From Nostoc punctiforme PCC 73102 (GTDB lineage Bacteria; Cyanobacteriota; Cyanobacteriia; Cyanobacteriales; Nostocaceae), in the NCBI RefSeq assembly GCF_000020025.1, contig NC_010628.1, positions 4,200,001 through 4,232,000 on the forward strand: a stretch of 32,000 nucleotides of DNA. The letters run 5' to 3'. Made by a program: the position numbers and the translations under genes. The notes under the pieces were generated by a model. That model was not told the DNA's origin, searched no databases, and was given only the letters and a program-made list of their open reading frames with translations. Each line of letters begins with the position of its first letter. Within the stretch, counting starts at the first letter, position 1. Of the stretch, positions 2,106-32,000 are shown in pieces.

Positions 2106-2113
2106 ATCAACTC

Positions 2114-2140
2114 AGGTTGACTATCATCAATAGTCAACCT
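2114..2140 (+). terminator. Perfect 10-bp stem hairpin between the 620-aa gene and the SDR gene
   Basis: AGGTTGACTA (2114-2123) pairs with TAGTCAACCT (2131-2140) around a 7-nt loop. No U-run follows, so it could be an mRNA-stability or attenuation hairpin rather than an intrinsic terminator. Confidence 0.3.
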
Positions 2141-2174
2141 CTTAGGCATACAAATTAACATTTAACCAAGCATT

Positions 2175-3032: not shown

Positions 3033-3061
3033 CGAGTTAATTATTCATTAAAAAAATAAAT

Positions 3062-5184: not shown

Positions 5185-5221
5185 ATAAATTTCACAACAT
5201 TACTTTTTAAAATTTCAGCAA

Positions 5222-6550: not shown

Positions 6551-6558
6551 GAGTGGAT

Positions 6559-8241: not shown

Positions 8242-8283
8242 TTGCTGAAAAACAAATATGTAGTCTTCATCAGCATAATACAA

Positions 8284-9498: not shown

Positions 9499-9526
9499 TT
9501 TAATTTAATTGATAGGATTTTTAAAA

Positions 9527-14029: not shown

Positions 14030-15217
14030 ATGATGAAGCGGATGTTAAAAAAAAAATCTTTAAATCTTTGGTTAATTGGACTGCTTGTTTTAGCTGGTCT
14101 AGTAGCGAGTACTACAACCTTTTACGGTTTATCTTTCTTTAGGCAAGGAGTGGGAGAAAGCAATACATCAGCTCCAACGATAAAGAAACTAGTAACTAGA
14201 AAGATAACGGCTTTAGGGAGATTGCAACCATTAACAGAAGTTATTCGCTTGTCAGCACCCCAGACTTTAGAGAACGATCGCGTCGCTCAATTGTTTATCA
14301 AAGAAGGTGATAAGTTGAAAAAAGGACAAATAATCGCCACATTAGACTCTAAACAAAGCCTACAATTAGCCTTAAAAGAGGCACAAGAGCAAGTCAGAGT
14401 TGCCCAATCTCGGTATGACCAAATCAAAGCAGGTGCAAAAGCGGGAGATATTCAAGCGCAAAAGGCTACAATTACTAAATTGCAAGCCGAATTACAAGGA
14501 GAAATTGCCACCCAAAAAGCTAATATTGCTCGTTGGCAATCAGAAGTTACCAATGCTCAGGCAGAATATAATCGGTCTCAATCCCTGTACCAACAAGGGG
14601 CGATCGCCGTTTCTGATTTCGATCGCAAGCGTTTAGCCCTAGAAACGGCTCAAGCTCAATTAGCCCAAGCATCTGCCCAGCAAAATGGTACTGTAGCCAC
14701 ACTTGAAGCCCAAATCACCGAAGCCAAAGAAGTACTTAACCGGATAGCTGAAGTACGTCCTGTCGATCTACAAGCTGCAAAAACCGAGATAGACAGAGCC
14801 AATGCTGCTGTAAAACGCGTCCAAAACGACTTAAATCAGGCTGATATCAAGGCACCAATTGCTGGACAAATTATTAAAATTCATACCCGACCGGGGGAAA
14901 AGCTGACTGATGAAGGTATTGCCGATCTAGGGCAAACCAATGACATGGTAGCGATCGCCGAAGTCTATCAAACCGATATTGCTAAAATTCACGTAGGGCA
15001 AAAAGCCCTGATTACCAGTCAAGCATTTACTGGACAAGTCAAAGGCACTGTTTACGAACTTGGACTGGAAGTTATTCGCCAAAATGTGTTTAGTAACCAA
15101 CCAGGAGAAAACCTCGACCGCCGAGTTGTAGAAGTCAAAGTGCGTTTGCAACCTGAAGACAGCGAACGCGTATCCCGTTTGACTAACTTACAAGTCCAAG
15201 TAGCTATAGAAATCTGA
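14030..15217 (+). CDS. devB: ABC-exporter membrane fusion protein, DevB family (HlyD-like)
   Basis: N-terminal TM segment, then ITALGRLQPLTEVIRLSAP...RVAQLFIKEGDKLKKGQIIATLDS, a long coiled coil and a C-terminal beta-barrel region, as in DevB-family adaptors. An AAGGAG RBS abuts the first ATG, so the real start may be the Met at 14042. Confidence 0.8.
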   Translation: MMKRMLKKKSLNLWLIGLLVLAGLVASTTTFYGLSFFRQGVGESNTSAPTIKKLVTRKITALGRLQPLTEVIRLSAPQTLENDRVAQLFIKEGDKLKKGQIIATLDSKQSLQLALKEAQEQVRVAQSRYDQIKAGAKAGDIQAQKATITKLQAELQGEIATQKANIARWQSEVTNAQAEYNRSQSLYQQGAIAVSDFDRKRLALETAQAQLAQASAQQNGTVATLEAQITEAKEVLNRIAEVRPVDLQAAKTEIDRANAAVKRVQNDLNQADIKAPIAGQIIKIHTRPGEKLTDEGIADLGQTNDMVAIAEVYQTDIAKIHVGQKALITSQAFTGQVKGTVYELGLEVIRQNVFSNQPGENLDRRVVEVKVRLQPEDSERVSRLTNLQVQVAIEI

Positions 15218-15290
15218 AGTCAAAAGAATATAGGCTACCTGTGAGAATTCATTAGACAGTCCTTTCATTTTTTCTCCAAAAATTCAATTT

Positions 15291-16457
15291 ATGCTTCGTA
15301 AACTATTTTATAGAATTCCTTTAGCCTGGTTGCAAATGTCCAGGGAAAAAACTCGTTTAGCAGTTGCAATTGTGGGAATTGCTTTTGCAGATATTCTGAT
15401 GTTTGTACAATTGGGGTTTAAGAGTGCGCTCTACGACGCTGCTGTTAGACCTCAATATTCTCTACAAGGGGATCTTTTCTTAATTAATCCCCAGTTTGAA
15501 ACTGTGTTCTCTGTCAAGAGTTTTTCCAGACAACGTTTATATCAAGCTGCGGGATTTGACAGTGTGAGTTCGGTTAGTTACCTCTACATTGATTCTGGAC
15601 AGTGGCGCAATCCTATTACCCACAAAGACCGCCGGATTCTAATTTTTGGCATAGATCCGGCCAATTCTGCTTTTAAATTACCAGAGGTCAATCAACATTT
15701 GGATGACTTAAAAATGCTTGATACTGTGCTATTCGATCAAATGGGACGCTCAGAATATGGCCCCATCTCTGCTCTTTTACAAAAGTCTGATTTCTTACAA
15801 ACAGAAGTTAATAATGTTTTGATCCGAGTAGCAGGAATATTTAATTTGGGAGCATCTTTTGCAGCTGACGGTAACGCCATTACTAGTGAATCAACTTTTA
15901 TGAAGTTATTTCCCAACCGTCGGACAGACCAGATTGATATAGGTATAATTAAACTGAAATCCAATGCAGATATTCAACGGATACAAGCAGATATACAGAC
16001 TATTTTACCCGCAGATATTCAAGTGTTAACACAAGTAGAGTTGGCTACAAGGGAGAAAGAATATTGGGCGAATTCTACTCCCATTGGATTTATATTTGGA
16101 TTAGGTTCACTAGTGGCTTTTATCGTTGGTACAGTGATTGTTTACCAGATTATTTATGCAGATGTCTCCGATCATTTACCAGAATACGCTACATTGAAGG
16201 CAATGGGATATAGCAATCGCTACTTAATAATTGTCATTTTTCAAGAATCATTGATTTTGGCCTTAATAGGCTTCATTCCAGGTTGTGTTCTATCTTTGGG
16301 AGTATATCATGCTGCCCAAATATCTACCCGATTGCCAATTATGATGACAGTTAGTCGAGCTGTTGTTGTGCTGTTGTTGACCATTGTCATGTGTTTTATT
16401 TCTGGAGGTATTGCGATCAATAAGTTACACAAAGCTGACCCTGCGGATATATTTTAA
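15291..16457 (+). CDS. devC: ABC-exporter permease, DevC family (FtsX/MacB-like)
   Basis: IPLAWLQMSREKTRLAVAIVGIAFADILMFVQLGFKSALYDAA... followed by a periplasmic domain and a C-terminal FtsX-type 3-TM bundle. This is the typical DevC architecture and size. Confidence 0.8.
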   Translation: MLRKLFYRIPLAWLQMSREKTRLAVAIVGIAFADILMFVQLGFKSALYDAAVRPQYSLQGDLFLINPQFETVFSVKSFSRQRLYQAAGFDSVSSVSYLYIDSGQWRNPITHKDRRILIFGIDPANSAFKLPEVNQHLDDLKMLDTVLFDQMGRSEYGPISALLQKSDFLQTEVNNVLIRVAGIFNLGASFAADGNAITSESTFMKLFPNRRTDQIDIGIIKLKSNADIQRIQADIQTILPADIQVLTQVELATREKEYWANSTPIGFIFGLGSLVAFIVGTVIVYQIIYADVSDHLPEYATLKAMGYSNRYLIIVIFQESLILALIGFIPGCVLSLGVYHAAQISTRLPIMMTVSRAVVVLLLTIVMCFISGGIAINKLHKADPADIF

Positions 16458-18743: not shown

Positions 18744-20573
18744 ATGAATTGTCTCCGTAATCGGTTTGTTAAGATTGCTCTGACTACCGTGCTTTCTCTA
18801 GGATTGTACCTACTAGCAGCCAATTTTAGCCATCGTGGCAATCTTGTAGAAGCCAATTCTCAATCTCAATTAATTGCACAAGCAAATCGTCGTCCTTCTT
18901 GGCTGGCACCGTCTCCACCTAAGTTCCCTTATTTCCGGGATAGGAAAGTAGTGATTGCCAAGGCACAAAAAATTTCGGATGGTCTTGAAGCCCACATTAA
19001 AGCATGGTTTGCGGGTAAGGCTCCTCCGGGGATTCCAAATACATTGATTCCGAAGGGGGTGGATACCAAAGAATTCCGTAATTTTCGCTTAGTAAAACCT
19101 GAGGAGATTACACCTGAGCAACAATGGGCAGTCCGACCGGCTGAGAAAATTAATCTCAAAGCAACTCGTGGGTTTTTCCCAGACCCCAATGCAACCTACT
19201 TAGTATTACCTAATCTGCTTGCCCCCTTTGGCAGTAAGGTAATCGTTGAAGGAGAATTTCCTCATGCGCGGTTCTTTGACATTCAAGCCACACCTTCGTT
19301 TCATCCTGAAGCCTACCGATATCGGGGCTTTGGTGTTGGCGAAGTGCCGATTGTAGATGTTGATATCGATCCACTACCAGGAAATGTCAATCCATTCCGA
19401 GTAGATGCGAACCGTAATGCCACTAAGCGTAAATATCGAGTGACATTCGATATGGCAATCGGCAATCCTGTTGATTTGAATCCAGTGTTTCGTCCTCCTC
19501 ATTATCGCGCACCTGGCAACAATCGCATGGGTGGCTCAATCCTCTATCAAGGACCTTGGGGAGAGACTAAACCTTGGGGCCATGGACTGGGTGTATGGGA
19601 TATGGGTCAGATATGGATTCGCTATTATGCACCAGATAAAGCTAAGGGTTCCTTAGGGGGTGTAGCACTTCCCAAAGTCTATTATCAGTTCCCTGATGGT
19701 AGAAAATACTATATCCAAGCTGATTTTGAAGGTTGGGAGAATCGATCTAATCGGCGCATTGCTGCTAAGTGGACAGCTCCTGAAGATCCAACTAAACATA
19801 AAGGTGCAAAAACGGGATGGTTCAAGAAATTTGGTATTTTTCGAGCAATTGTTGAGGGAATGGCTTTGGAAGTTCCCTGGTTGAACCTAGACCAGGAGTA
19901 TGTACGCGATCTCGATCTTGGTGTCGCAGGTCGTGGAGAAGACATGCCACCACCTGGTAACTTTTCAGTGGCAGCAACGGAATGTAATTACATTAATTAT
20001 TTGTTACGGGGTATGTCTCTGGGACGGGATAAGGTTGCCGTATTAACTGGTAAATTGCCGACAACTCCACGTACACGCAATGGTGAAGCCGTGATGAAAA
20101 AAGCCCAGGCTCGTTACTGGTCAATCACTGCTACTGATACAGCATTGCCCGAACCTGATGGCTTTGTTGGTGCAGTCTTACATTCAGTCATGGATGATGA
20201 AATTATCACAGATGCTCAGCAGCGATATGCGATCGTTTTATCTCGAGCGGAAGACCGTCCGAAAAATGCAACGGCCAGCAATGGTGTCACCTGGGTCAAC
20301 TGGGGACCAACTACAAACGTCACCTGGACTCTGCGTTGGATGAGCGTTTATCCCAATTGGGACTTTGGTTTAACTCCAGACGATCGCAAGATAGGATGGG
20401 CTAGTGATTGGGCAAGCAAACGATATGACCCATCCATAATTGGACAAAACTCTCACAATGGTGTTTTAGGTGAATATTTACCTGAAATACACTATATGAC
20501 TAAAGCCCGTTTTGAAAAGTTGGGAAATTCCCTCAAACCAGATAAAATTCCCATCTGGGAGGATAACGACTAG
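18744..20573 (+). CDS. 609-aa predicted secreted or membrane-anchored protein of unknown function
   Basis: Long ORF with an N-terminal hydrophobic segment (IALTTVLSLGLYLLAANF). I am not confident of any recognisable domain; ARYWSITATD is faintly reminiscent of DUF1214/DUF1254-type proteins. Confidence 0.7.
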   Translation: MNCLRNRFVKIALTTVLSLGLYLLAANFSHRGNLVEANSQSQLIAQANRRPSWLAPSPPKFPYFRDRKVVIAKAQKISDGLEAHIKAWFAGKAPPGIPNTLIPKGVDTKEFRNFRLVKPEEITPEQQWAVRPAEKINLKATRGFFPDPNATYLVLPNLLAPFGSKVIVEGEFPHARFFDIQATPSFHPEAYRYRGFGVGEVPIVDVDIDPLPGNVNPFRVDANRNATKRKYRVTFDMAIGNPVDLNPVFRPPHYRAPGNNRMGGSILYQGPWGETKPWGHGLGVWDMGQIWIRYYAPDKAKGSLGGVALPKVYYQFPDGRKYYIQADFEGWENRSNRRIAAKWTAPEDPTKHKGAKTGWFKKFGIFRAIVEGMALEVPWLNLDQEYVRDLDLGVAGRGEDMPPPGNFSVAATECNYINYLLRGMSLGRDKVAVLTGKLPTTPRTRNGEAVMKKAQARYWSITATDTALPEPDGFVGAVLHSVMDDEIITDAQQRYAIVLSRAEDRPKNATASNGVTWVNWGPTTNVTWTLRWMSVYPNWDFGLTPDDRKIGWASDWASKRYDPSIIGQNSHNGVLGEYLPEIHYMTKARFEKLGNSLKPDKIPIWEDND

Positions 20574-20912: not shown

Positions 20913-20951
20913 GGGGTTTTTTGTATAAACCCTCGAAAAGGGGGATTATGA
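20913..20951. repeat. Left 39-bp terminal inverted repeat of the recombinase element
   Basis: See the element entry. It overlaps the recombinase stop codon. Confidence 0.8.
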
Positions 20952-21515
20952 GTTTTCTGAAAGGGAAGAGGTAGAATTTCCAAGGTAACGATAGACACTC
21001 GCCTTGGAAAGATCGAAGTCTTTCATCAAGATTTTAATAAGCACGCCTTGCTTCCGTTGAAGCCGAAGTTCCACGATCTGCTCTTGAGACAAACGTTTAC
21101 TCCTGCCAAATCGAACACCTAACTCCTTTGCCTTATTAATGCCATCTAGCTGACGCTCAGAACGGAGTTCAGTCTCAAATTCAGCGATCGCTGCCAGCAT
21201 GTTAAAAAGTAGCCGTCCGGTAGCATCCGACGTGTCGATATTTTGGTCGAGCACCTGCAAGGCAACATGTTTACGCTGGAGTGCATCAGCGATCGTGCAA
21301 AGGTGAAGAGTCGAACGAGCTAACCGATCTAAGCGTGACACAATCAATGTATCGCCATCTCTAACATATTCCAGACAAGCCGCAAGCTGGGAACGTTGCT
21401 GGTTAGTGCCGCTTTGTGTTTCCTGATAAATCTTGTCGCAATGTTTGAGTTTATGTAACTGAATATCCAAACTCTGTCCCGACGAGCTTACTCTTGCGTA
21501 CCCAACCCTCGCCAT
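20946..21515 (-). CDS. Small serine recombinase (resolvase/invertase family, 189 aa)
   Basis: MARVGYARVSSSGQSLDIQ carries the catalytic-Ser motif, followed by DTLIVSRLDRLARS, AEFETELRSERQ and a C-terminal HTH (SKASVYRYL). Size and layout match Hin/Gin/Tn3-type resolvases. Confidence 0.9.
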   Translation of the reverse strand: MARVGYARVSSSGQSLDIQLHKLKHCDKIYQETQSGTNQQRSQLAACLEYVRDGDTLIVSRLDRLARSTLHLCTIADALQRKHVALQVLDQNIDTSDATGRLLFNMLAAIAEFETELRSERQLDGINKAKELGVRFGRSKRLSQEQIVELRLQRKQGVLIKILMKDFDLSKASVYRYLGNSTSSLSENS

Positions 21516-21734: not shown

Positions 21735-22067
21735 TAATACTATTCGTGCGATGTTTGGTGCTGTTCGGTTAACCATTGCAGTGCTATCACAAATAAAAGT
21801 GACGTTGAAAACTTAGTTTTGGGTAATAAGGACAGCAATTAGCGTATTTAGCCCAACATTTAATCAAAATTTATTTAGCCTTTAATCTTCAGAATTTACA
21901 AAGATTATTAGTAGCTTGATATGTAAATAATATAATAATATACGTAAATTTATTTGCATTATTGGTATCAAAAAATACTAATAAGTAGCCTTTAGAAGTG
22001 CTTGACAAATTATGCATCAAGTGCTGGGCATTTTTGGATTTATAAAAAACCAACAAATTCAACGTTT

Positions 22068-22793
22068 ATGTCCGACTGCCAAGCAAAACCTGAAACCAAC
22101 TACTTAAGTACGTCTAGTGGTAAGTATTTGACAGCGTTTCAGAGGAAACTGCTACTACAAAATTTGCAAAAAAGTCTAGTTGAATCCTACCGCCAACGAA
22201 TTGAAATCATGTTGTTGGCAGATGAGGGGAAAACTCAAAGGTCGATTTGTCAAACTTTGGGATGTTGTGCAGCAACAGCACGACATTGGACACACATAGC
22301 CCGGAGTGGCATGGCGCACCAATGGCAAGATTGCCCCATTGGTCGCCCGAAGGCAGTAAATGACCAGTATTTAGAACGTTTGAAAGAACTGGTTAATAGT
22401 AGTCCTCGCGCTCATGGCTATGCTTTTCGTCGGTGGACAGCAAACTGGCTAGGGAAACATCTAGCAAAAGAATTTGGGATTGAGGTGAGCGATCGCCATA
22501 TCAAGCGACTGCTCAAACAGATGGGATTATCCACACTACCAAAACCCAGTAATGTTGAACAAAACAGCACTGAACAAGTTCAGGGTTCCAAAATTTTGAT
22601 TTGTGACCTCCAATCGGCAGGTATTCCAGATGATTCCGAATTTTTACCTATTAATTTTGCCAAATTAGGAAAACATTTAGACATTCATGGCGCAAAATAT
22701 ATCTGCTCAGTTGCTTACTCTGCAACAGTTCAACAATACTCTGGGTCTTTCTCTTTCTACAGAGGAATTTCAACACTGTCTTCAACAAGTTAA
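22068..22793 (+). CDS. Helix-turn-helix protein resembling the N-terminal DNA-binding half of IS630-type transposases (no DDE domain); possible regulator
   Basis: RIEIMLLADEGKTQRSICQTLGCCAATARHWTHIA is the HTH. GRPKAVNDQYLERLKELVNSSPRAHGYAFRRWTANWLGKHLAKEFGIEVSDRHIKRLLKQMGLS is the winged-helix part. I prefer the ATG at 22068 over the TTG at 22002. The 3' 107 nt overlap the transporter ORF. Confidence 0.6.
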   Translation: MSDCQAKPETNYLSTSSGKYLTAFQRKLLLQNLQKSLVESYRQRIEIMLLADEGKTQRSICQTLGCCAATARHWTHIARSGMAHQWQDCPIGRPKAVNDQYLERLKELVNSSPRAHGYAFRRWTANWLGKHLAKEFGIEVSDRHIKRLLKQMGLSTLPKPSNVEQNSTEQVQGSKILICDLQSAGIPDDSEFLPINFAKLGKHLDIHGAKYICSVAYSATVQQYSGSFSFYRGISTLSSTS

Positions 22794-25416
22794 ATTTATC
22801 AACCCAAAAGTCGGCAAGTTTTGGCAAGGAACTGATGCTCAACCAGGAATCTATATTGCGATCGCTGGCAAAGTCAGGTTGCTTGATAGCACCGATGAGT
22901 TAATCGCTACTTTGGAATTGGGAGACTCATTTGGGGAATTTACCTTGTTTAAGGAGGGTGACTTTAGACCTTATGCAGCAAGAGCTTCAGTCAACTTGCA
23001 ACTGTGTTTTATTCCGAGTGAAGTGTTGTGGCCATTGATGGCTAAATATCCTCAAATTCGAGAGCATTTATGGGCTAAGGCGCTGTCCCGTAATCCGCAA
23101 CAGTTAGACTCAGATAACCCCCCAGTACTGCCAACTGACTCAAAAAGGCTGCATGAAACAAGGATTTTGTCAACACCAGCAGTAGAGCCAAGCGCGAAAA
23201 AGATTAGCAAAGCCTATTTTCCCAACTCCACGCAGCGAGTGGGGCATTTATTACAACGTGTGATTCGGCGCTACCCATTTTTTGCCCAACAGAGTGGATC
23301 GGATTGTGGTGCAGCTTGTTTAGTGATGGTGTCTCGGTATTGGGGGAAAAACTTTAGTGTAAATCGCTTGCGGGATATCGCCAATGTTGACCGTAATGGC
23401 TCATCGTTGCGGGGGTTATCGGCGGCGGCAGAAAGTATTGGGTTTGCTACGCGACCAGTGAAAGCGAGTCTTGACCAATTGGCCAAGCAAAAATTGCCTG
23501 CGATCGCCCACTGGGAAGGCAAGCATTACATTGTAGTCTACGAAATTACCCCTAAACAGGTAATTGTGGCAGATCCTGGTATTGGTCAACGCACCCTCAG
23601 CCACCAAGAATTTAAAGCCAACTGGACTGGCTATACACTGCTACTGCAACCCACAGCCTGGTTGAAGGATGCCAAAGAAACTATAACTCCCTTTTGGCAA
23701 TTCTTTGAATTGATGAAGCCTCACGCTTTAGTGATGCTAGAAGTGTTTATCGCTTCCTTATTTATCCAGATTTTTGGACTTGTTACTCCTTTATTTACCC
23801 AGCTAATTTTAGACCGTGTAGTAGTACAGCGTTCTGAACTAACCTTAACGGCGGTGGGATTAGGCTTACTGATTTTTAGTTTATTCCGTGTGGCGATGAC
23901 AGGATTGCGGCAATACCTGTTAGACCACACAGCGAATAAGGTAGATTTAGCCCTGATTGTCGGATTTATTCGCCATACCCTGCGGCTACCTTTGAGTTAC
24001 TTTGAGTCCCGTTATGTGGGGGATATTATCTCTCGCGTACAGGAAAACCGCAAAATTCAACGCTTCCTCTCAGGTGAGGCATTATCGATCCTGCTAGATT
24101 TAGTCACTGTTTTTATTTATTTAGGATTGATGTTTTGGTACAGTTGGAAAATGGCGTTATTAGTATTAGTAATTATACCGCCTTTTTTCCTTTTGGCATT
24201 GATTGCCACACCTTTTTTACAAAAGATTTCTAGGGAAATCTTTAATGCTGTTGCCAAAGAAAGTAGCTATCTAATTGAAACTCTTTCTGGTATACGAACG
24301 GTTAAATCCACAGCAGTAGAACAAACGGTGCGGTGGCATTGGGAAGAGTTATTAAGTAAGGAAGTAAAAACTAACTTTTCCGGGCAAATTATCAGCAATC
24401 GGTTGCAAATATTCAGCAACACAATTGAAGCAGTGCTAACTACCGTCTTACTGTGGTTTGGGGCGTACCAAGTTATTCATAACGAGTTAACCATTGGGCA
24501 ATTGGTGGCATTTAATATGCTGCTAGGAAATATTATTACACCCTTCCAACGATTAACAGTTTTGTGGAATCAATTACAAGAAGTGGTGATTGCAGTAGAA
24601 CGCATTAATGATGTCTTGGATGCGGAACCAGAAGAGGATTTGCAGCATCAGGTACGACAATCTTTACCATCAATTCAAGGTAATATTCGCTTTGATAACG
24701 TGACATTTCGCTATCACCCCGAAAGCGATGTTAATGTTTTGGAAAATCTCAGTTTTGAAGTCCAAAGCGGGCAAATGGTTGCTCTGGTCGGACGGAGTGG
24801 TTCGGGGAAAACCACAATTTCTAAGCTGGTTTTGGGGTTATATCCTCCCACAGATGGCAAAGTGTTGATTGATGGACAGGATATTACCAGTCTTTCGTTG
24901 CGTTCTCTACGCGAACAGGTTGGGGTAGTTGACCAAGATACCTTTTTGTTTGGTGGAACGATTCGGGAAAATATTAGCTTGGCACATCCTGGGGCAACTT
25001 TGGTAGAGATTATTGAAGCGGCGCGATTGGCGGGTGCCGATCAGTTTATTAAAAACTTACCTATGGGTTATGAAACCCAGATTGGGGAAGGAGGGGGGAT
25101 GTTATCTGGAGGACAGCGACAAAGAATTGCGATCGCAAAAGCATTGTTAGGCAATCCCAAGCTGTTGATTTTGGATGAGGCCACTTCCCATCTAGATGCA
25201 GAGTCAGAAAGGATTATCCAGACGAATTTAAACACAATTCTTCAAGACAGAACCACCTTAGTCATCGCCCATCGCCTTTCAACTGTGCGGAATGCAGATT
25301 TGATTTTAGTGTTAGATCGCGGCGTGTTGATTGAAAGTGGGACTCACAAAGAGTTGATGGCGAAGCGAGGACATTATTTTTATCTCAATCATCAGCAGAT
25401 GGATGTTGCCGGGTGA
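22687..25416 (+). CDS. Cyclic-nucleotide-binding-domain / C39 peptidase / ABC transporter fusion (double-glycine-leader peptide processing exporter)
   Basis: cNMP-like segment GDSFGEFTLFKEGDFRPYAARA. C39 catalytic set: Q-x4-DC (QQSGSDCGAACLVMVSRYWG), H (EGKHYIVVYE) and D (VADPG). Six-TM ABC_membrane domain. Walker A GRSGSGKTT, signature LSGGQRQR, Walker B LLILDEATS and H-loop IAHRLS. Confidence 0.9.
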   Translation: MAQNISAQLLTLQQFNNTLGLSLSTEEFQHCLQQVKFINPKVGKFWQGTDAQPGIYIAIAGKVRLLDSTDELIATLELGDSFGEFTLFKEGDFRPYAARASVNLQLCFIPSEVLWPLMAKYPQIREHLWAKALSRNPQQLDSDNPPVLPTDSKRLHETRILSTPAVEPSAKKISKAYFPNSTQRVGHLLQRVIRRYPFFAQQSGSDCGAACLVMVSRYWGKNFSVNRLRDIANVDRNGSSLRGLSAAAESIGFATRPVKASLDQLAKQKLPAIAHWEGKHYIVVYEITPKQVIVADPGIGQRTLSHQEFKANWTGYTLLLQPTAWLKDAKETITPFWQFFELMKPHALVMLEVFIASLFIQIFGLVTPLFTQLILDRVVVQRSELTLTAVGLGLLIFSLFRVAMTGLRQYLLDHTANKVDLALIVGFIRHTLRLPLSYFESRYVGDIISRVQENRKIQRFLSGEALSILLDLVTVFIYLGLMFWYSWKMALLVLVIIPPFFLLALIATPFLQKISREIFNAVAKESSYLIETLSGIRTVKSTAVEQTVRWHWEELLSKEVKTNFSGQIISNRLQIFSNTIEAVLTTVLLWFGAYQVIHNELTIGQLVAFNMLLGNIITPFQRLTVLWNQLQEVVIAVERINDVLDAEPEEDLQHQVRQSLPSIQGNIRFDNVTFRYHPESDVNVLENLSFEVQSGQMVALVGRSGSGKTTISKLVLGLYPPTDGKVLIDGQDITSLSLRSLREQVGVVDQDTFLFGGTIRENISLAHPGATLVEIIEAARLAGADQFIKNLPMGYETQIGEGGGMLSGGQRQRIAIAKALLGNPKLLILDEATSHLDAESERIIQTNLNTILQDRTTLVIAHRLSTVRNADLILVLDRGVLIESGTHKELMAKRGHYFYLNHQQMDVAG

Positions 25417-25488
25417 AACAAAAGGACAAGGAGGAAGCTTTTCTTATCTCCCTATATCCAAAATTCCAAATTGATATTAGGAAAAATC

Positions 25489-27012
25489 ATGCCAAATACA
25501 TTGAATGGAAGGGTTCAAACCCAAATCTATGATGTAGAACAGCACGAAGAAATTTTAAGAGAGCAAATACCAGCTAGATCGACTGATGATTGGGCTGATG
25601 CAACCAAGGATTTACTTGATAGCTTGCCCCAGGTTTGGACAAGGGGATTGTTGTACTTTTTAATCGTGTTTGTGTCGATCATTTTACCTTGGGCAATGCT
25701 ATCTAAAGTGGATGAAACTGGTACAGCAAGAGGGCGGCTTGAGCCAAAGGGAAAGACGGTTAGACTCGATGCTGCTGTGGCAGGTACTGTTGCCGAAATT
25801 CGGATAAAAGAGGGCGATTCGGTTAAAGTTGGGCAGACTTTATTAGTGTTGGAATCGGAATTAGTTAAAGCAGAATTACGGCAAGTGCAAGATAAGTTAG
25901 AAGGACAATTAAATCGACTTTCTCAGTTAAATTCATCTAAAAGTCAGTTAGTTGTATCTTTGACAACTCAACAGCAACAAAACCAATCTCAAGAGTTAGA
26001 AAAGCAGTCTCAAATTGACCAAGCGCGAGAGAATATGAATGCTCTTAGGAATTCTTATGACTTACAAAAAGACGAAAAATTAGCTCAAGTTAATCAGGCA
26101 CGGCAAACTCTTGAACATAGTCAGACAGCTAATAAGTTAGTAAACAGTAGTTTGACGAGTACCGAGCGGGAAGTGGAACGCTATCGCAATCTTTGGCAAT
26201 CAGGCGTTGTGCCAGAAATTAATGTTGTTGAAAAACAAGATATAGCTAAAGACAAGCAACAGTTATACGAACAAAATAAATCAGATATTCAGCAAGCTAA
26301 ACTACGTTTGCTAGAACAACAGAGTAGTTATGAGCGGACTATTCGGCAAGCAAATGCAGATATTGAGCAGGCAGAATTGCGGCTGAAAGAACAGGAAAGG
26401 AGTTATCAGACCTTAACTCGTTCCAGCAAGCTAGCTGTGTTAAAAATCGACGAACAACAGAAGAGTTTAGAAACAGAAATTACTACGCTTCAGGCAGAAA
26501 TTGCTCAAACCAAGAGTCAGATTGTCTCCTTAAAGTTTCAGTTAGGACAACGAGAGTTAAGAGCCACAGTGAATGGTAGAGTGTTTCAGTTACCGATACA
26601 ACGGGCTGGGTCTGTAGTGCAGCCAGGAACAATGATTGCAGAAATTGCACCTCAAGGTTCGCCTTTAATAATTCGGGCGCAAATGGCGACAACTGAAAGT
26701 GGTTTTTTGCGAAAAGGGTTGCCAGTCAAATTAAAGTTTGACGCTTATCCCTTTCAGGATTATGGAATAGTAGAAGGCAATTTAGCAGAGATTTCCCCTA
26801 CTACCTTAGAAGTAGATACACCTAATGGCAAGGTAGCAGCTTATGACTTAGAAATTGCCTTAAAACAAAATTGTCTTCTCTCGGCGAATAAGTGTATTGC
26901 CTTGCATCCTGGGGATACTGCAACAGCTGAAGTTATTGTGCGTCAGCGTCGGATTATTGATTTTCTGCTCGATCCATTTAAGCAATTGCAGCAGGGTGGG
27001 GTGAAATTGTAA
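25489..27012 (+). CDS. HlyD-family type I secretion membrane fusion protein
   Basis: N-terminal TM (LLYFLIVFVSIILPWAML), a lipoyl-like motif (GTVAEIRIKEGDSVKVGQTLLVLES), a very long Q/E-rich coiled coil and a C-terminal beta domain. The ATG at 25489 is preceded by a GGAGGAAG-type RBS region; the track start at 25471 is a TTG. Confidence 0.85.
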   Translation: MPNTLNGRVQTQIYDVEQHEEILREQIPARSTDDWADATKDLLDSLPQVWTRGLLYFLIVFVSIILPWAMLSKVDETGTARGRLEPKGKTVRLDAAVAGTVAEIRIKEGDSVKVGQTLLVLESELVKAELRQVQDKLEGQLNRLSQLNSSKSQLVVSLTTQQQQNQSQELEKQSQIDQARENMNALRNSYDLQKDEKLAQVNQARQTLEHSQTANKLVNSSLTSTEREVERYRNLWQSGVVPEINVVEKQDIAKDKQQLYEQNKSDIQQAKLRLLEQQSSYERTIRQANADIEQAELRLKEQERSYQTLTRSSKLAVLKIDEQQKSLETEITTLQAEIAQTKSQIVSLKFQLGQRELRATVNGRVFQLPIQRAGSVVQPGTMIAEIAPQGSPLIIRAQMATTESGFLRKGLPVKLKFDAYPFQDYGIVEGNLAEISPTTLEVDTPNGKVAAYDLEIALKQNCLLSANKCIALHPGDTATAEVIVRQRRIIDFLLDPFKQLQQGGVKL

Positions 27013-27086: not shown

Positions 27087-27151
27087 CCAGCTAAGAAGTC
27101 ATGCTCTCATATTTAATTTTAATTTTGCTAACCAAATTTAGGATAAATATC

Positions 27152-27880
27152 ATGTCACAATCTATCAACATTACCAACGAAGACATTCTACACCAAGTTA
27201 AGTTATCTTGTAAAATTCCTGAGATAGTTGAGCAGATTATTACCCGTAAGCTAATCATAGCGGCTGCTGAAGAAGCTGGAATAAAAGTAGAGGTTGAGGA
27301 ACTTCAGAAAGCAGCAGACCAAATACGGTTAGTTAATAAACTCGATAGTGCCGATCGTACTTGGCAATGGTTAGAGAAACATAGTTTGTCCTTAGATGAT
27401 TTTGAAGAAATTGCTTACTTAAATCTCATATCTGGAAAATTAACTAATCATCTTTTTGCTGATAAGGTTGAACCCTATTTCATTGAGAACCAACTAGATT
27501 ATGTTGGTGTGGTGATGTATGAAGTTGTTCTAGATGACGAAGATTTAGCCCTAGAACTCTTCTATGCGATTAAGGAAGGTGAAATGAGTTTCTATGATGT
27601 AGCTCACAAATTTATTCAGGATACTGAGTTACGCCGAAAAGGGGGATATTTAGGGATAGTGCGCCGCAAAGATTTAAAACCAGAGATTTCTGCTGCTGTT
27701 TTTAGTGCTAAACCGCCACAGGTTATTAAACCAATTGTAACATCTAAGGGAATACATTTGATTTTAGTAGAGGAATTAATTCAACCAGACCTAAATGAGA
27801 AACTTCGCACAAATATCATTTTTAACTTATTCTCTCACTGGCTTAATCAACAAATTGCACAATCTGAAACAAGTAAGTAA
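27152..27880 (+). CDS. Parvulin-type peptidyl-prolyl cis-trans isomerase with a SurA-like N-terminal helical domain
   Basis: The C-terminal GGYLGIVRRKDLKPEISAAVFSAKPPQVIKPIVTSKGIHLILVEE is a PpiC/parvulin pattern. There is no clear signal peptide from Met 27152. The alternative ATG at 27101 adds MLSYLILILLTKFRINI. Confidence 0.75.
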   Translation: MSQSINITNEDILHQVKLSCKIPEIVEQIITRKLIIAAAEEAGIKVEVEELQKAADQIRLVNKLDSADRTWQWLEKHSLSLDDFEEIAYLNLISGKLTNHLFADKVEPYFIENQLDYVGVVMYEVVLDDEDLALELFYAIKEGEMSFYDVAHKFIQDTELRRKGGYLGIVRRKDLKPEISAAVFSAKPPQVIKPIVTSKGIHLILVEELIQPDLNEKLRTNIIFNLFSHWLNQQIAQSETSK

Positions 27881-27934: not shown

Positions 27935-27943
27935 GGCCCAGAC
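27935..27943. repeat. Left copy of the 9-bp target-site duplication GGCCCAGAC
   Basis: It lies immediately outside the left IR and is identical to 30144-30152. Confidence 0.8.
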
Positions 27944-28102
27944 CATCAGTGAGAGGTTAGAGTGATTGCACTTTTGTCAAGAGGGTGCAGGAAAAGGAGA
28001 TAAATCCAGCTTGGAGATTGGTTTTCGCAGGGCTTTAACTACTCCTAAATCTTGATTTTCTTTGGCAGCAAAGTACTTAATAGGGTCATCCGCTTTACCT
28101 TT

Positions 28103-29338
28103 GTGATAGGGGGTGCATCCCAGTTTTTATTATTCCAAAACAAATAAATAACAGGGAAGGATTGTTACAGAAAACGGAAGTCAGGAAGTAAGGGGATATC
28201 AGGAAGGGATAATAAAGTCATCAAGACTAGGTGTATCAATGACTCCTGAAGAAGAACAACAGATAAAAGAATATTCTCGTGCAATAGCAAAGATACTGTA
28301 CAAAAGTACTACGGGTGAGCAACTCACAAGTTTGGCAAAAATAGAAGAAGTAGTACGCTCTCAAATGCGGAAGCATGTAATGCCAGAAGTAGGGTTTTTT
28401 TATCGAAAATGCCGCAGGAGAAAGCAGAGGATACAAACGAAAAATAAAAAGTATTATTGGAGAACTGCCAATTACAAACTCTCAAGCACAAAAGCTAGAA
28501 ATTAGACCCCATAATCAATTGAGTCCATATTTAGAAGCTTGTTGCTTACGAATCAGCGCGTCGGTATCGTATCAACGTGCGGCAGAAGATATTGAATATT
28601 TAACTGGTGTAGAAGTATCAAAAAGTGTGCAGCAACGATTAGTGCATCGTCAAAATTTTGAATTACCGCAAGTAGAATCAACTGTGGAAGAATTGAGTGT
28701 GGATGGAGGAAATATACGCATTCGTACAATCAAGGGACAAGTCTGTGATTGGAAGGGTTATAAAGCTACCTGCTTACATGAAAAACAAGCTATTGCTGCC
28801 TCATTTCAAGAAAATAGTCTTGTAATTGATTGGGTCAAAAGCCAATCAATTGCTCCTATCTTGACCTGTCTTGGCGATGGCCATGACGGTATTTGGAATA
28901 TTGTCCGCGATTTTGCTCCCGAACACCAGCGTCGGGAAGTACTTGATTGGTTTCATCTGATGGAAAACCTACACAAGATTGGCGGTTCTAATCAACGGCT
29001 CAATCAGGCTAAAATCCTTCTCTGGCAAGGAAAAGTTGATGATGCTATCGCTGTCTTTGCTGACTGTCAGCTAAAACAAGCTTTTAATTTCTGTACTTAT
29101 CTTGAGAAACATCGACACCGGATTGTCAATTACCAATATTATCAAGCAGAACAAATCTGTTCCATTGGTTCTGGTGCTATTGAGTCTACTGTCAAACAGA
29201 TTGACCGTCGAACCAAAATTTCTGGCGCACAATGGAAATCTGATAACGTTCCTCAAGTCTTAGCTCAACGCCAGAGCTTATCTCAATGGATTAATCTTTG
29301 CTCACTAAATAAAAACTGGGATGCTCCCTGTCATAGGC
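28103..29338 (+). mobile_element. Possible inner element carrying the ISKra4-like transposase (boundaries approximate)
   Basis: Inverted repeat with a perfect 17-bp core: GCATCCCAGTTTTTATT (28115-28131) and AATAAAAACTGGGATGC (29308-29324). Weaker matches extend outward. No target duplication is seen. Confidence 0.35.
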
Positions 29339-29346
29339 GACACTAA
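28239..29346 (+). pseudogene. ISKra4-family-like transposase gene split by a single frameshift in a T7 run
   Basis: ORFs 28239-28505 and 28519-29346 join into one frame if one T is removed from TTTTTTT at 28395-28401. The joined frame reads ...MPEVGFFIENAAGESRGYKRKIKSIIGELPITNSQAQKLEIRPHNQLSPYLEACCL.... Downstream motifs (LTCLGDGHDGIWNI, DWFHLMENLHK, SIGSGAIESTVKQI, KISGAQW) match my memory of cyanobacterial ISKra4-family transposases. Confidence 0.65.
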
Positions 29347-29864
29347 AATGGTACAAGCCACGAAAAATCATCTCTAAAGAAATGCGGTCAAATGGTAAAG
29401 CTAATTCATCAGCTATCCAAAGTCGTTCAAAATTAAGTAGTGCGAACTTAATGCTATCAGGCAGTGGTCGCTTAAGCCGTTGCTGCCAATTCAGTTGTAA
29501 CTGAGGTAGTAAATCTTTAAAGACCCGCTCAAATAATTCAGCAGGGAAAACTAAAAATCTTTCTGACAAAGACTGTTGAGCAACTTTAGTAACAGGACAC
29601 CATAATAAACCTTCTCATGCTAACAGACGATTCAACTCTTGAACGCCAGGAACTTGTCGCCACAACAGTGTTAATATTGCTGCTACCATTAAAGATAAAT
29701 TGAGAACTCTGTCTCGTAATCCTAACTGTTTATAATATTTTTGTTGGGCAAAAACTGCTGGGGTTAAATATTGCTTCTAAGTGTTTAGCGATCGCTTCAT
29801 TATCTATAGTAGGAGTATTATGTCGGTGTGGGTAGTCAGAGTTTTGTTTTGGTCGCTTGGGCAT
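29339..29864 (-). pseudogene. 5' portion of a DDE transposase gene (IS4-superfamily-like) with a frameshift, an in-frame TGA and a 3' truncation
   Basis: The minus strand reads MPKRPKQNSDYPHRHNTPTIDNEAIAKHLEA, then a frameshift in a T-run. It continues LTPAVFAQQKYYKQLGLRDRVLNLSLMVAAILTLLWRQVPGVQELNRLLA*EGLLWCPVTKVAQQSLSERFLVFPAELFERVFKDLLPQLQLNWQQRLKRPLPDSIKFALLNFERLWIAD.... No catalytic DDE region follows. The family assignment is from memory. Confidence 0.5.
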
Positions 29865-30143
29865 GGTGGTAAACCAAACTTTTCATTACCTCGTTTAATA
29901 ATTGAATTTACACAACAATGTTGCCCGCTTCTTGCTTTAGTTTTTTGTCGTTACAATACTTTTTCTTACCTTATTTAAGTTATCAATTACCTTCAAGATA
30001 ATGATAATCAAATAGTGGGGGAGGAGGCAAGCTTCTCTTGCCTTCTCCCCCTCTCCCCATACACGATTATCATTCTTATTAAGACTATTTTGAGTATTTT
30101 AGCTGATTGACAAAAGGCGCTTTATTCTAACCTCTTACGGATG

Positions 30144-30152
30144 GGCCCAGAC
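30144..30152. repeat. Right copy of the 9-bp target-site duplication GGCCCAGAC
   Basis: It lies immediately outside the right IR and is identical to 27935-27943. Confidence 0.8.
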
Positions 30153-30463
30153 TAGTTTTTGCGTAATGCTTCAAGAGAGTACAAAATTAATAACCTAAGT
30201 TGCTAGCGATCGCAAAGTACTTTTTTTAAGTACAAAACTTAATTCTTAGTATCTAAACACTACTTAAAAAATAGCTTTTGATACAAAATTAATACTGTTT
30301 ATAGGTACTAACTAGCAACTTATGTTAATAGTGTTTGAGGCAGTATAAGACTTATATTTGATTTTTGAGAAACTAAGCTGCCTAGAAGCTTGACACATCA
30401 AGCTTTCCTTGTGAGTATAATGAGGAAAATGTAAGATTCCTACGTTAGTGGCTAACTAACAAC

Positions 30464-30703
30464 TTAGTCAAGTCCCAAAGTTGCTAGTGTTATTGTTTTT
30501 ATTGTCAAGATAGCTGTTGTTTCTGTTGTTGGTATAGCTGTTGTTGTTGTAGCCGTTACTGTTGTTACTGTTATTATTGTTGAATTGAGTCCACCCTGAA
30601 TGCTGAGAGCATCACTTTCAGACAATTGGTCCAAATAGCTTTCGGAATCATCAAATAATTCACTGCCAGTAACGGATAGATTATCAATTTTTATTGTACT
30701 CAT
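30464..30703 (-). CDS. Double-glycine-leader peptide precursor with a 41-aa threonine-rich core
   Basis: Strong RBS (AAGGAGA, 7 nt upstream). The leader MSTIKIDNLSVTGSELFDDSESYLDQLSESDALSIQGG has hydrophobic residues at -4, -12 and -15. The core is LNSTIITVTTVTATTTTAIPTTETTAILTIKTITLATLGLD. Confidence 0.8.
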   Translation of the reverse strand: MSTIKIDNLSVTGSELFDDSESYLDQLSESDALSIQGGLNSTIITVTTVTATTTTAIPTTETTAILTIKTITLATLGLD

Positions 30704-31115
30704 TGCTTTATCTCCTTTGAAGAATTATTCAGGTTGCATAGGTATTAATTGCTGTATTTACCAATACTTACCTGAAAATATCTATATCTTAAAAGTTAAG
30801 ATTAGCAAATTCAATTTACAAAATTACTTTTTGATGACATAATTATTTCATTATTAGCTTAATTTTAAATATAAAAAAAGTTTTTAGACAAATTGAAGAG
30901 TTTGCTTTTAATATAAGACATTAACAAGGCTCATCTCTATTATTATGGGTAAAATAATCTAGGAGAAATCCAATTATAAAATTATAGTATATTAAAAAGA
31001 GACAAAACTAATTCATTTATGCGATCGCAAATTTTAAATCTGAGCAAAAACTAGAAAAAAATCAGCCCAAAATCCCTCTTGGACTGAACGATAAAAATTT
31101 AGATTTTGACTTTGT

Positions 31116-31304
31116 TCAAAGTAGTTCACTGTTTGAATTCGCTTCTTTCTGCTCAATATGTTGGCTCTGTTGTTGGCGACCTAGATATGAATCTTTATCG
31201 TTCTTACCTACAATGTATCCAAAGGCTGCACTTCCAATAGCTAGGAACAACAGTAGAACAATGCCTTCGTAACCATTGGGTTGATAAACAGGAGGCTGAC
31301 TCAT
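31116..31304 (-). CDS. 62-aa single-TM protein: leaderless paralog of the neighbouring precursor core (candidate immunity or partner protein)
   Basis: MSQPPVYQPNGYEGIVLLLFLAIGSAAFGYIVGKNDKDSYLGRQQQSQHIEQKEANSNSELL. The segment GSAAFGYIVGKNDK aligns with ASAALGYAVGRNDR of the 63-aa precursor. The RBS is weak. Confidence 0.55.
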   Translation of the reverse strand: MSQPPVYQPNGYEGIVLLLFLAIGSAAFGYIVGKNDKDSYLGRQQQSQHIEQKEANSNSELL

Positions 31305-31434
31305 AAATTAATTTCCCGTTAATACAACTAAAAATTTACCTTAAATGCAGAGTGAAGGACATGAGTATTAAGACTAAGCCCTTCACTAAATGAACTGAAA
31401 ATTTTTGAATGATCTACAGAGGGATTATAGCTTA

Positions 31435-31626
31435 CTAGCGATCGTTACGACCCACTGCATATCCTAGTGCAGCAGAAGCTAAACCAAGGCTGATAAGTGC
31501 AAAAATGGTGAAACCACCATGAGATGATCCTGCTTGTTCATCAGATAGCTCGTTGAGAAAGCTTTCCTGATCTATAAAAAGAGATGAACCGGCTGGTTTA
31601 ATGTCGCTAATACAAATGGTTGCCAT
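31435..31626 (-). CDS. Double-glycine-leader peptide precursor with a 25-aa hydrophobic core
   Basis: AAGGAAA RBS upstream. Leader MATICISDIKPAGSSLFIDQESFLNELSDEQAGSSHGG and core FTIFALISLGLASAALGYAVGRNDR. Confidence 0.8.
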   Translation of the reverse strand: MATICISDIKPAGSSLFIDQESFLNELSDEQAGSSHGGFTIFALISLGLASAALGYAVGRNDR

Positions 31627-31676
31627 GATTGAATTTCCTTTTATTTCAATTAAGCGAAAAGTGGTTTTTGCTGATT

Positions 31677-31714
31677 GCTAAACCTACATATATATAGGAA
31701 ATAATGTAGGTTTA
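31677..31714. terminator. Perfect 12-bp-stem hairpin between two precursor genes
   Basis: CTAAACCTACAT (31677-31688) pairs with ATGTAGGTTTAG (31703-31714) around a 14-nt loop. No adjacent U-run, so it may be a partial terminator or an RNA-processing/stability element. Confidence 0.35.
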
Positions 31715-31799
31715 GAATAGTCTTGCTAAATCAATCAGACTTTTTAAACTACATACAAATGCTTCTTAACCTGTTCAAAATATTTAGAACAAGCAGAGT

Positions 31800-32000
31800 T
31801 TAGTAGTAGCGACCTTTAATGTAGGAAGCAACAAAAGTAACACCAACAACAGTAAGACCAATGCTTAAACAAGCTCCACTACTAGCTGTAGTGATAACTG
31901 TCCAAATAGCACCACCTTGATTACCTAATTCATCTTCAGTTAAAGACATCAGATAGCTTTCTTGATCGGCAAACAAATCGTAACCGGCTGGGCGTAAATC
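31800..32000 (-). CDS. Third double-glycine-leader peptide precursor, 5'-truncated by the window edge
   Basis: Not in the ORF track. The minus strand from 32000 reads DLRPAGYDLFADQESYLMSLTEDELGNQGG followed by the core AIWTVITTASSGACLSIGLTVVGVTFVASYIKGRYY*, with the stop at 31800-31802. The leader is homologous to the other two. Confidence 0.75.
   Translation of the reverse strand, partial: DLRPAGYDLFADQESYLMSLTEDELGNQGGAIWTVITTASSGACLSIGLTVVGVTFVASYIKGRYY

Follow-up and report, generated by a model that had tools for sequence, protein, structure and literature searches.

Which kind of peptide is made from a group of small precursor genes when no modification enzyme is found beside them? The question is raised by a 32,000-nucleotide stretch of the genome of Nostoc punctiforme PCC 73102 (the window, whose numbering is used for all positions below), where positions 30464-32000 carry three minus-strand genes, named P1, P2 and P3 here, encoding peptides with a double-glycine (GG) leader. 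Domain scans of the window proteins agree with the initial annotation of this DNA that no LanM, radical SAM or YcaO gene is present in it. The annotation offered two options, unmodified class II-like peptides or peptides modified by enzymes encoded elsewhere. The second is now favored, "elsewhere" being immediately adjacent, while the first has become less likely because a kinase and a lyase adjoin the peptide genes and this pairing recurs in 76 of 80 related loci. It is likely that P1-P3 are precursors belonging to a widespread cyanobacterial type of cluster for peptides that are made by the ribosome and modified after translation (RiPPs), in which Ser and Thr residues would be dehydrated by the kinase and the lyase and the product cut after GG and exported; they are probably not plain unmodified bacteriocins. 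This reading draws on the genes, their leader family, the selection acting on them, their neighborhood, and the conservation of active-site residues in the lyase (invariance and spacing) and in the C39 peptidase (motif), all observed here, and for its chemistry, by analogy, on characterized homologues.

Three precursor genes and their common leader

The three open reading frames (ORFs) stand as first described, with the same positions, lengths, and leader and core sequences. P3 (30464-30703, minus strand) encodes 79 amino acids (aa), a 38-aa leader MSTIKIDNLSVTGSELFDDSESYLDQLSESDALSIQGG (30590-30703) followed by a Thr-rich, Cys-free core of 41 aa (30467-30589). P2 (31435-31626, minus strand) encodes 63 aa, with a 38-aa leader MATICISDIKPAGSSLFIDQESFLNELSDEQAGSSHGG (31513-31626) and a Cys-free, 25-aa core FTIFALISLGLASAALGYAVGRNDR (31438-31512). 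P1 is cut by the window edge, as had been noticed, and enters the window at residue 8. Its 3' part (31800-32000, minus strand) covers residues 8-73 of 73: leader residues 8-37, ...DLRPAGYDLFADQESYLMSLTEDELGNQGG (31911-32000), a hydrophobic 36-aa core with one Cys, AIWTVITTASSGACLSIGLTVVGVTFVASYIKGRYY (31803-31910), and the stop codon (31800-31802). Contigs that extend beyond the edge were found by exact-protein look-up of P2; contig L004 is 100% identical to positions 29495-32000, and contig L001 is 96-97% identical. Both provide the complete P1, 73 aa long with a 37-aa leader and the 36-aa core. About 8 nucleotides (nt) ahead of the ATG, P3 has the sequence AGGAG and P2 the sequence AAGGAA. 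An Rfam scan of the window yields no family.

Pairwise identity of the leaders is 51-57%, 14 alignment columns being invariant, and the cores are unrelated, in line with the initial annotation of one distinctive leader on three different peptides. This similarity is far beyond chance. A hidden Markov model (HMM) of the family detects P3, P2 and the truncated P1 in the window with E-values of 1e-23, 1e-19 and 3e-13, respectively, and no other leader-type gene better than E 0.3, every stop-to-stop frame of 20 aa or more having been searched. NCBIfam (E <= 1) holds no family that matches P1, P2, P3 or orf62, the small gene downstream of P2 described below; in Pfam (E <= 10), P1, P2 and orf62 have no match and P3 has two low-complexity matches at chance level. 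Curated models of RiPP and bacteriocin leaders in these two databases (Nif11 TIGR03798, NHLP, bacteriocin signal) do not match P1-P3 significantly.

The initial annotation had proposed that the leader be used as a profile for searches, and these reveal a large cyanobacterial family. A profile of the three leaders, to each of which 4 core residues were added, retrieves 73 protein clusters with E-values from 1e-20 to 3e-10 among 5.8 billion sequences. Every named source is cyanobacterial (many entries are nameless) and every name given is "hypothetical protein". The members align over the whole leader, and their cores vary in length and sequence. When 1.84 billion representatives are searched exhaustively with a profile, the family grows to 1632 clusters (50% identity) at E <= 1e-3, of which 485 are found at E <= 1e-10. 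The leader thus marks one of the larger precursor families lacking a Pfam or NCBIfam model, and a leader HMM would recover many small genes that are now unannotated or termed "hypothetical".

Column statistics of the family show a bipartite leader. The C-terminal 12 residues harbor L-12 (90%), D/E-10, E/D-8 (94%), L/M-7, T/I/V-4, G-2 and G-1 and read as a classical double-glycine signal; the GG, the hydrophobic residues at -4, -7 and -12, the acidic residue at -8 and the C39 ABC transporter encoded nearby are those expected of one. Upstream of it lies a 24-residue N-terminal module, M-A-x-I-x-I-x-D/N-L-x-x-x-G-x-x-L-F-x-D-S-E-S-F/Y-L, in which M1, A2, I4, I6, L9, G13, L16, F17, D19, E21, S22, F/Y23 and L24 are the most conserved positions. 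C39 processing has no need of this N-terminal part. That the strongest conservation is located there counts in favor of a leader read by modification enzymes. To note, the Dolichospermum orthologue of P2 (contig L012, 10419-10589) has an internal deletion in the leader, by which the G-x-x-L-F-x-D part is lost, with the GG and the core retained.

The GG precedes the core in P1, P2 and P3, and in 151 of 157 distinct family members, the others having GA (3/157) or GS (3/157). Ser or Thr is present in 154 of the 157 cores, Thr being the commonest residue (12.7%), and Cys is found in 70 cores and missing from 87. Ser or Thr occurs 2-5 residues from a Cys 85 times, as compared to 64 ± 5 after shuffling; none of 2000 shuffles reaches the observed value, a count that cannot be used as a probability because the family sequences are related. 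In P1 itself, conserved Ser/Thr residues stand two to four residues ahead of the lone conserved Cys, and orthologues from Nostoc, Dolichospermum and Roholtiella share a conserved core that keeps the pattern (S/T)(S/T)-x-x-C. A separate feature of the family is a Ser/Thr-Pro dipeptide within the first four core residues, seen in 43 of 155 cores from loci L016-L095, about 7-fold more often than in shuffled cores (5.8 ± 2.3). This motif is absent from P1-P3; each cluster encodes one or two parvulin peptidyl-prolyl isomerases (PPIases).

Loss of the small frames in relatives, which had been named as an argument against the genes, is not what is found. The frames are kept, and the ratio of non-synonymous to synonymous differences (pN/pS), measured against paralogues and orthologues of Nostoc sp. 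NMS8, is 0.15-0.31 for P1 and 0.21-0.27 for P2; both genes are under purifying selection. Orthologues of P2 in which the core is kept are P0004, P0007, P0014, P0024 and P0046. The leader of P3 is of the same subtype as those of P0005, P0023, P0027 and P0028, a subtype which, in contrast to that of P1 and P2, is typical of the ScyE-type clusters described below. P3 is located in a segment of ~575 bp (~30395-30968) that is present in contigs L002-L004 and L006 and absent from L001 and L005. In the latter strains, 96-97% identical to the window, an N-terminal fragment of an IS4 element replaces it (L001 10660-10860).

Enzyme genes past the window edge

The peptide array was expected to continue beyond position 32000. 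It does not: contigs L004 and L001 contain only the first 7 codons of P1 (MATIKIS) past the edge, followed by enzyme genes, and the array therefore ends at P1. No further ORF of the leader family follows over 3.7 kb of L004 or 9.6 kb of L001 past this point. The modification genes begin ~280 nt past position 32000 and all four lie within about 4.5 kb. On the strand of the peptides and in the order of transcription, they encode an APH-family kinase (386 aa), a HopA1-family lyase (372 aa), a protein resembling aldo-keto reductases (AKR-like, 338 aa) and a parvulin PPIase (251 aa), and are followed by P1, P2 and orf62. Read outward from the window, L004 continues with the PPIase (251 aa), the AKR-like protein (338 aa), HopA1 (372 aa) and APH, and L001 harbors the full set, with the kinase and lyase genes at 5156-7463. 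The window edge thus probably separates the peptide genes from their modification genes; the lack of a modification enzyme within a window says little if the array touches its edge.

The kinase matches Pfam APH (PF01636, E 8e-12), and its HxDxxxxN motif is visible by eye in the sequence. Its top NCBIfam match is the class V lanthionine synthetase subunit LxmK (NF038156, E 3e-25), with a score of 89 bits where the family cut-off is 315; it is therefore a distant relative and not an equivalog. The lyase matches the HopA1 family (PF17914) with 212 bits, as well as a solved chain, 9dk1_B, named "Lyase". In class V lanthipeptides and thioamitides, a kinase and a lyase of these two families act together as a Ser/Thr dehydratase made of two proteins (PMC9486802). 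In the HopA1-family lyase CaoY, elimination needs K219 and R187, the variant R229Q is merely impaired, and Y236 was assigned through homology with Tyr158 of SpvC (PMC9486802). The present lyase family has the invariant residues R209, K240, R250 and Y257, with a spacing of 31/10/7, as compared to 32/10/7 for R187, K219, R229 and Y236 of CaoY, the residues being mapped by this spacing, with no direct alignment of the two proteins.

Cyanobacterial homologues of the AKR-like protein form a family of high conservation, with 74-90% identity. The protein is predicted to adopt the (alpha/beta)8 barrel of aldo-keto reductases, and its top Foldseek matches all belong to this superfamily. The AlphaFold model is weak, with a mean confidence score (pLDDT) of 57, and is therefore used for fold assignment only. 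In a profile alignment with Kv-beta2, the positions of the catalytic Asp and Lys are occupied by the invariant residues Phe70 and Val106, and the Asp-Tyr-Lys-His tetrad is incomplete. A role as a reductase of dehydro residues, of a new LanJ type, was considered and set aside because the protein lacks the canonical Asp and Lys.

This gene set is not a peculiarity of one strain. When leader sequences are used as seeds, APH and HopA1 genes are found beside the peptide genes in 8 of 8 informative contexts, namely the window lineage, a 6.4-Mb Nostoc contig, Gloeotrichia echinulata, Nostoc FACHB-280, Microseira wollei, Dolichospermum UHCC 0259, Atlanticothrix CENA357 and GCA_006365015; contig L015, which ends 400 bp past the peptide gene, was left out. 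The cluster of GCA_006365015 (L014) is compact, with HlyD, ABC exporter and helix-turn-helix (HTH) protein genes on one strand and three peptides, APH, HopA1, AKR-like protein and PPIase on the other, and contains neither a radical SAM nor a Nif11 gene. In L012 and L016, as in the window lineage, peptides of the P1/P2 type have the APH-HopA1-AKR-PPIase set as neighbors.

A converse scan, seeded with the lyase in species-representative genomes, returned at least 512 related loci, the best 80 of which were examined with HMMs built for this analysis. They originate from cyanobacteria (one record being termed "uncultured bacterium"), including Trichodesmium IMS101, Moorena, Okeania, Coleofasciculus, Crocosphaera and Mastigocoleus. 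An APH-family kinase adjoins the lyase in 80/80, and leader-family ORFs, 160 in total, are present in 76/80, at 6 kb or less from the lyase in 75 loci. A PPIase is encoded in 71/80, an ABC exporter with HlyD in 69/80 and the HTH protein in 61/80. The AKR-like protein together with a second PPIase characterizes 16/80 loci, and in 8/80 a ScyE-like beta-propeller takes their place. The latter is exemplified by the ScyD/ScyE-family protein of L007 (8388-9644; NF033206, E 2e-110) and was seen at this same position in 7 other species loci. Two kinase-lyase pairs, typically on either side of the peptide genes, are found in 12/80.

Upstream of the kinase, L001 harbors a separate RiPP-like unit (2300-5142). 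It encodes an 80-aa peptide whose GG leader is of another kind, a 145-aa Cys-rich protein, one or more Nif11-leader precursors, a radical SAM/SPASM protein and a 66-aa ORF. The Cys-rich protein is conserved and occurs in 41 of the 80 lyase-seeded loci. The radical SAM enzyme matches TIGR04103, "nif11-class peptide radical SAM maturase 3", with 836 bits, above the cut-off; as a Nif11-class maturase adjoining its own Nif11 precursor, it therefore has its own substrate, which is not P1-P3.

Export module, orf62 and the remainder of the window

Within the window, the export half of the cluster is encoded on the plus strand, convergent with the peptide genes, an orientation shared by the whole module in nearly all related loci. 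The 909-aa exporter (22687-25416) combines Pfam cNMP_binding, Peptidase_C39 (E 1e-41), ABC_membrane and ABC_tran domains. In the C39 domain (around residues 190-330), a Cys is read within a C39-type motif (SDCGAACL) and a His further downstream (AIAHWEGKHY); we take these to be the catalytic residues of C39 peptidases. The initial annotation had assigned the leaders to this protein, 5-9 kb from the peptide genes, and the domain content supports its presumed role as both GG-leader protease and exporter. It is followed by a 513-aa HlyD-family periplasmic adaptor (25471-27012; TIGR01843 type_I_hlyD, 229 bits, above the cut-off) and by a 259-aa PpiC/SurA-like parvulin PPIase (27101-27880; Pfam Rotamase, E 9e-12), which also matches TIGR04500, "peptide maturation system protein", weakly. 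Upstream, a homeodomain-like HTH protein of 263 aa (22002-22793; Pfam HTH_32/HTH_33/HTH_23) is presumably a regulator. At its 3' end, the gene for this protein runs ~100 nt into the beginning of the exporter gene, in another frame, as is also the case in L010, L011, L012 and L013.

Export module and peptide genes are parted by an insertion of ~2.2 kb (27943-30144), delineated by blastn breakpoints against L001. It carries small ORFs and a truncated ISKra4-family transposase gene (28519-29346, plus strand; NF033572, 252 bits, profile positions 115-416 only), which lies outside the system. In L002 and L003, homology to the window ends near position 29407, and other neighbors follow (an MFS transporter and a 1373-aa protein).

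A fourth ORF of the peptide region, orf62 (31116-31304, minus strand), was not part of the initial annotation. It encodes a leaderless single-pass membrane protein of 62 aa. Its hydrophobic segment LAIGSAAFGYIVGKNDK resembles the P2 core segment LGLASAALGYAVGRNDR, and a phmmer comparison of orf62 with P2 cores gives E-values of 0.003-0.007, from which the two segments are deduced to be paralogous. In both Nostoc sp. NMS8 (L016 15563-15751) and Dolichospermum sp. UHCC 0259 (L012 10708-10908), the gene is conserved and comes right after the P2 orthologue; pN/pS against the NMS8 copy is 0.37. Its product is a candidate immunity protein or partner of P2, and may be an immunity protein derived from the very peptide against which protection is given. 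A terminator-like hairpin (31062-31087, minus strand), identified by consensus match only, consists of an 11-pair stem followed by a T-run, TTTTTTTCTA. Since it comes right after orf62, it suggests that P1, P2 and orf62 form one transcription unit and that P3 is expressed separately.

The remainder of the window encodes other functions. A plus-strand run of tailoring-type genes (243-10477) comprises a TubC_N docking-domain protein, two short-chain dehydrogenases/reductases, a FAD/ALO oxidase, a NAD epimerase, a GMC oxidoreductase, a GT4 glycosyltransferase and a methyltransferase, and a DevB-like adaptor with a FtsX-type permease is encoded at 14030-16457. Together these have the look of an island for tailoring and export of a glycolipid or polyketide, with no relation to the peptide cluster. 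Also present are genes for an 861-aa protein with an SBBP beta-propeller and RTX repeats (10812-13397, plus strand), a 609-aa protein that matches neither Pfam nor NCBIfam (18744-20573, plus strand) and a serine recombinase of the resolvase type (20946-21515, minus strand).

Possible fates of the peptides and relation to known systems

By analogy with CaoK/CaoY, LxmK/LxmY and TvaC/TvaD, maturation of P1-P3 may be pictured as follows. The N-terminal leader module would be the docking site of the kinase-lyase pair. The kinase would phosphorylate Ser and Thr residues of the core, and the lyase would eliminate the phosphate, leaving dehydroalanine or dehydrobutyrine. In P1, Ser/Thr and the single Cys could then form one lanthionine or methyllanthionine. 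The Cys-free P2 and P3 would remain linear dehydropeptides, or might be altered further by the AKR-fold protein, the parvulins or both, proteins that could alternatively act as chaperones. The C39 domain of the exporter would cut after GG, as known for its family, and the ABC and HlyD proteins would export the core. More speculatively, orf62 would protect the producer or pair with P2.

Several observations weigh against this scheme. The kinase is the distant relative described above, its 89 bits being far below the 315-bit cut-off of the LxmK family. The AKR-fold protein is devoid of the canonical catalytic Asp and Lys. P2 and P3, lacking Cys, are therefore no lanthipeptides in the strict sense, and at most P1 could be one. 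In this strain an insertion sequence separates the peptides from the export module, and P3 is missing from a sister strain. Co-occurrence cannot distinguish leader recognition by the kinase and lyase from recognition by the exporter or the PPIase only, because all these genes travel together. Finally, the P1 and P2 cores resemble conserved membrane helices with small-xxx-small motifs and are followed by an immunity-like gene. Such a layout is the look of unmodified two-peptide class II bacteriocins. P1 and P2 could accordingly be a pair of this kind, cut after GG and exported by the C39-ABC/HlyD machinery, with orf62 providing immunity and with the kinase and lyase acting on other peptides, for instance Thr-rich ones such as P3, or on something else. 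Their cores are conserved hydrophobic helices with GxxxG or SxxxG motifs and charged tails, a small membrane-protein gene and a terminator-like hairpin come downstream, Ser and Thr are few and poorly conserved in P2, and the C-terminal leader module by itself fits a classical double-glycine signal. The Dolichospermum P2 orthologue, which dispenses with the central leader motif while keeping GG and core, points in the same direction. Conversely, the 24-residue conserved N-terminal module would be superfluous for C39 processing, the Ser/Thr-x-x-Cys of P1 is kept across genera, and peptides of the P1/P2 type adjoin the APH-HopA1-AKR-PPIase set in three separate contexts, which together make the unmodified pair unlikely.

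Other explanations retain a modification step and change either the enzyme or the purpose. A radical SAM/SPASM gene is located ~4.7 kb past P1 in L001 and is seen in several other loci, and P1-P3 might be its substrates instead of those of the kinase and lyase. This is hardly credible, as the enzyme is a TIGR04103 Nif11-class maturase with its own Nif11-leader precursor alongside, a radical SAM gene is lacking from 48 of the 76 loci with leader-family ORFs, and the complete, compact cluster L014 does without one. The radical SAM enzyme was rejected as the modifier on these grounds, a Nif11-specific family and absence from most loci. The products might also follow the same modification route and serve a role other than an antimicrobial one, as secreted signals or as developmental or surface peptides of filamentous cyanobacteria, released by a HetC-like transporter. 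In favor, the exporter includes a domain that binds cyclic nucleotides and has an HTH protein as its partner, clusters of this type are found mainly in filamentous and often heterocystous species, HetP-like proteins are skewed to group II bacteriocin clusters (Wang et al. 2011, PMC3140520), and many cores are extremely hydrophobic or Thr/Pro-rich, unlike typical cationic antimicrobials. Hypervariable cores and an immunity-like orf62 suit conflict systems better, however, and the cluster is also present in unicellular Crocosphaera (L094), so that such a role appears highly doubtful. It is quite improbable, too, that the cluster defines a RiPP class distinct from any lanthipeptide variant, with dehydro residues or phospho-intermediates handled by enzymes new to RiPP chemistry. 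Candidates for such a chemistry would possibly be the AKR-fold protein with its invariant Phe and Val, the ScyE-like beta-propeller of other loci, and the parvulins, acting like Pin1 on phospho-Thr/Ser-Pro; orf62 would then possibly be an immunity protein born of the toxin's own core.

Dehydration by the kinase and lyase thus remains the favored route for P1-P3. If it holds, a hypervariable library of peptides, dehydrated and for the most part free of Cys, is made by many cyanobacteria. These are mostly filamentous and would include Trichodesmium, Moorena and numerous Nostoc that live in symbiosis with plants or in lichens; potential producer strains are readily available. To our knowledge, the kinase-lyase route has so far been described for a few actinobacterial antibiotics only.

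The cluster type itself is already known from bioinformatics, its products being uncharacterized, and P1-P3 add a further member to it. "Group II" cyanobacterial bacteriocin clusters were defined by a long CAP_ED-C39-ABC protein, HlyD, a SurA-type rotamase, extra modification genes and arrayed double-glycine precursors, and their listing includes 58 precursors left unclassified as "Other" (Wang, Fewer, Sivonen 2011, PMC3140520). The cluster described here has this whole gene set, its modification genes being just past the window. Group II was also reported for Trichodesmium IMS101, recovered in our lyase-seeded scan, and for the Microcoleus/Coleofasciculus chthonoplastes lineage (PMC3140520). 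In 2022, "type-B" putative class V LanA precursors were described by the van der Donk laboratory, all cyanobacterial, next to LanK/LanY, with a common leader and diverse cores, and uncharacterized; they had been selected for Cys-containing ORFs only (PMC9486802). Type-B LanA is probably the present leader family. Neither paper names the leader, a product or a function, and the AKR-fold and ScyE-like subtypes were not found described in the text read. The motif strings of the leader occur in none of the paper texts searched, a search that covers neither figures nor supplementary tables, and the literature searched contains no report of a characterized product of this cluster type.

Class II double-glycine bacteriocins, including the two-peptide class IIb, share with P1-P3 the GG site, the hydrophobic residues at -4, -7 and -12, the acidic -8 and a C39 ABC transporter with an accessory protein. 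Adjacent small hydrophobic peptides of the GxxxG type with a small membrane-protein gene after them are common to both as well. The present leader, however, is about twice as long, with an additional and more conserved N-terminal module, and the peptides invariably stand beside a kinase and a lyase, in a Gram-negative host with an HlyD-type adaptor. Prochlorosins and the Nif11 and NHLP RiPPs likewise display one conserved leader on many hypervariable cores, a cyanobacterial origin, a GG site and C39 ABC export, whereas the leader of P1-P3 matches neither TIGR03798 nor Pfam Nif11 and its enzymes would be a split kinase and lyase rather than LanM.

The closest resemblance is to the class V lanthipeptides lexapeptide (LxmK/LxmY/LxmX), cacaoidin (CaoK/CaoY) and pristinin (SprPT/SprH3) and to the thioamitide pair TvaC/TvaD. 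In all of these, a discrete APH kinase is encoded next to a HopA1 lyase and small precursors with Ser/Thr-rich cores; in addition, the present kinase has LxmK as its top NCBIfam match and the lyase spaces its R/K/R/Y residues as the CaoY active site does. The differences are nevertheless substantial. The present leader is unrelated to the actinobacterial "type-A", has GG at its end and relies on a C39 ABC exporter. Cys is absent from more than half of the cores in the family, including P2 and P3, and the accessory genes encode parvulins as well as an AKR-fold protein and a beta-propeller of the ScyE-like kind. The lineage has no LanX (the second APH-like cyclase), flavin decarboxylase or F420 reductase; within 10 kb, L001 and L004 contain a single APH-family gene and no second one of the LanX type, and the second kinase-lyase pair of 12/80 loci is a full pair and not LanX. 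Since LanX is missing, P2 and P3 are Cys-free and the kinase falls under the family cut-off, the cluster is no member of class V by strict criteria; at the dehydration step, its homology with the characterized pairs suggests that it works as class V does.

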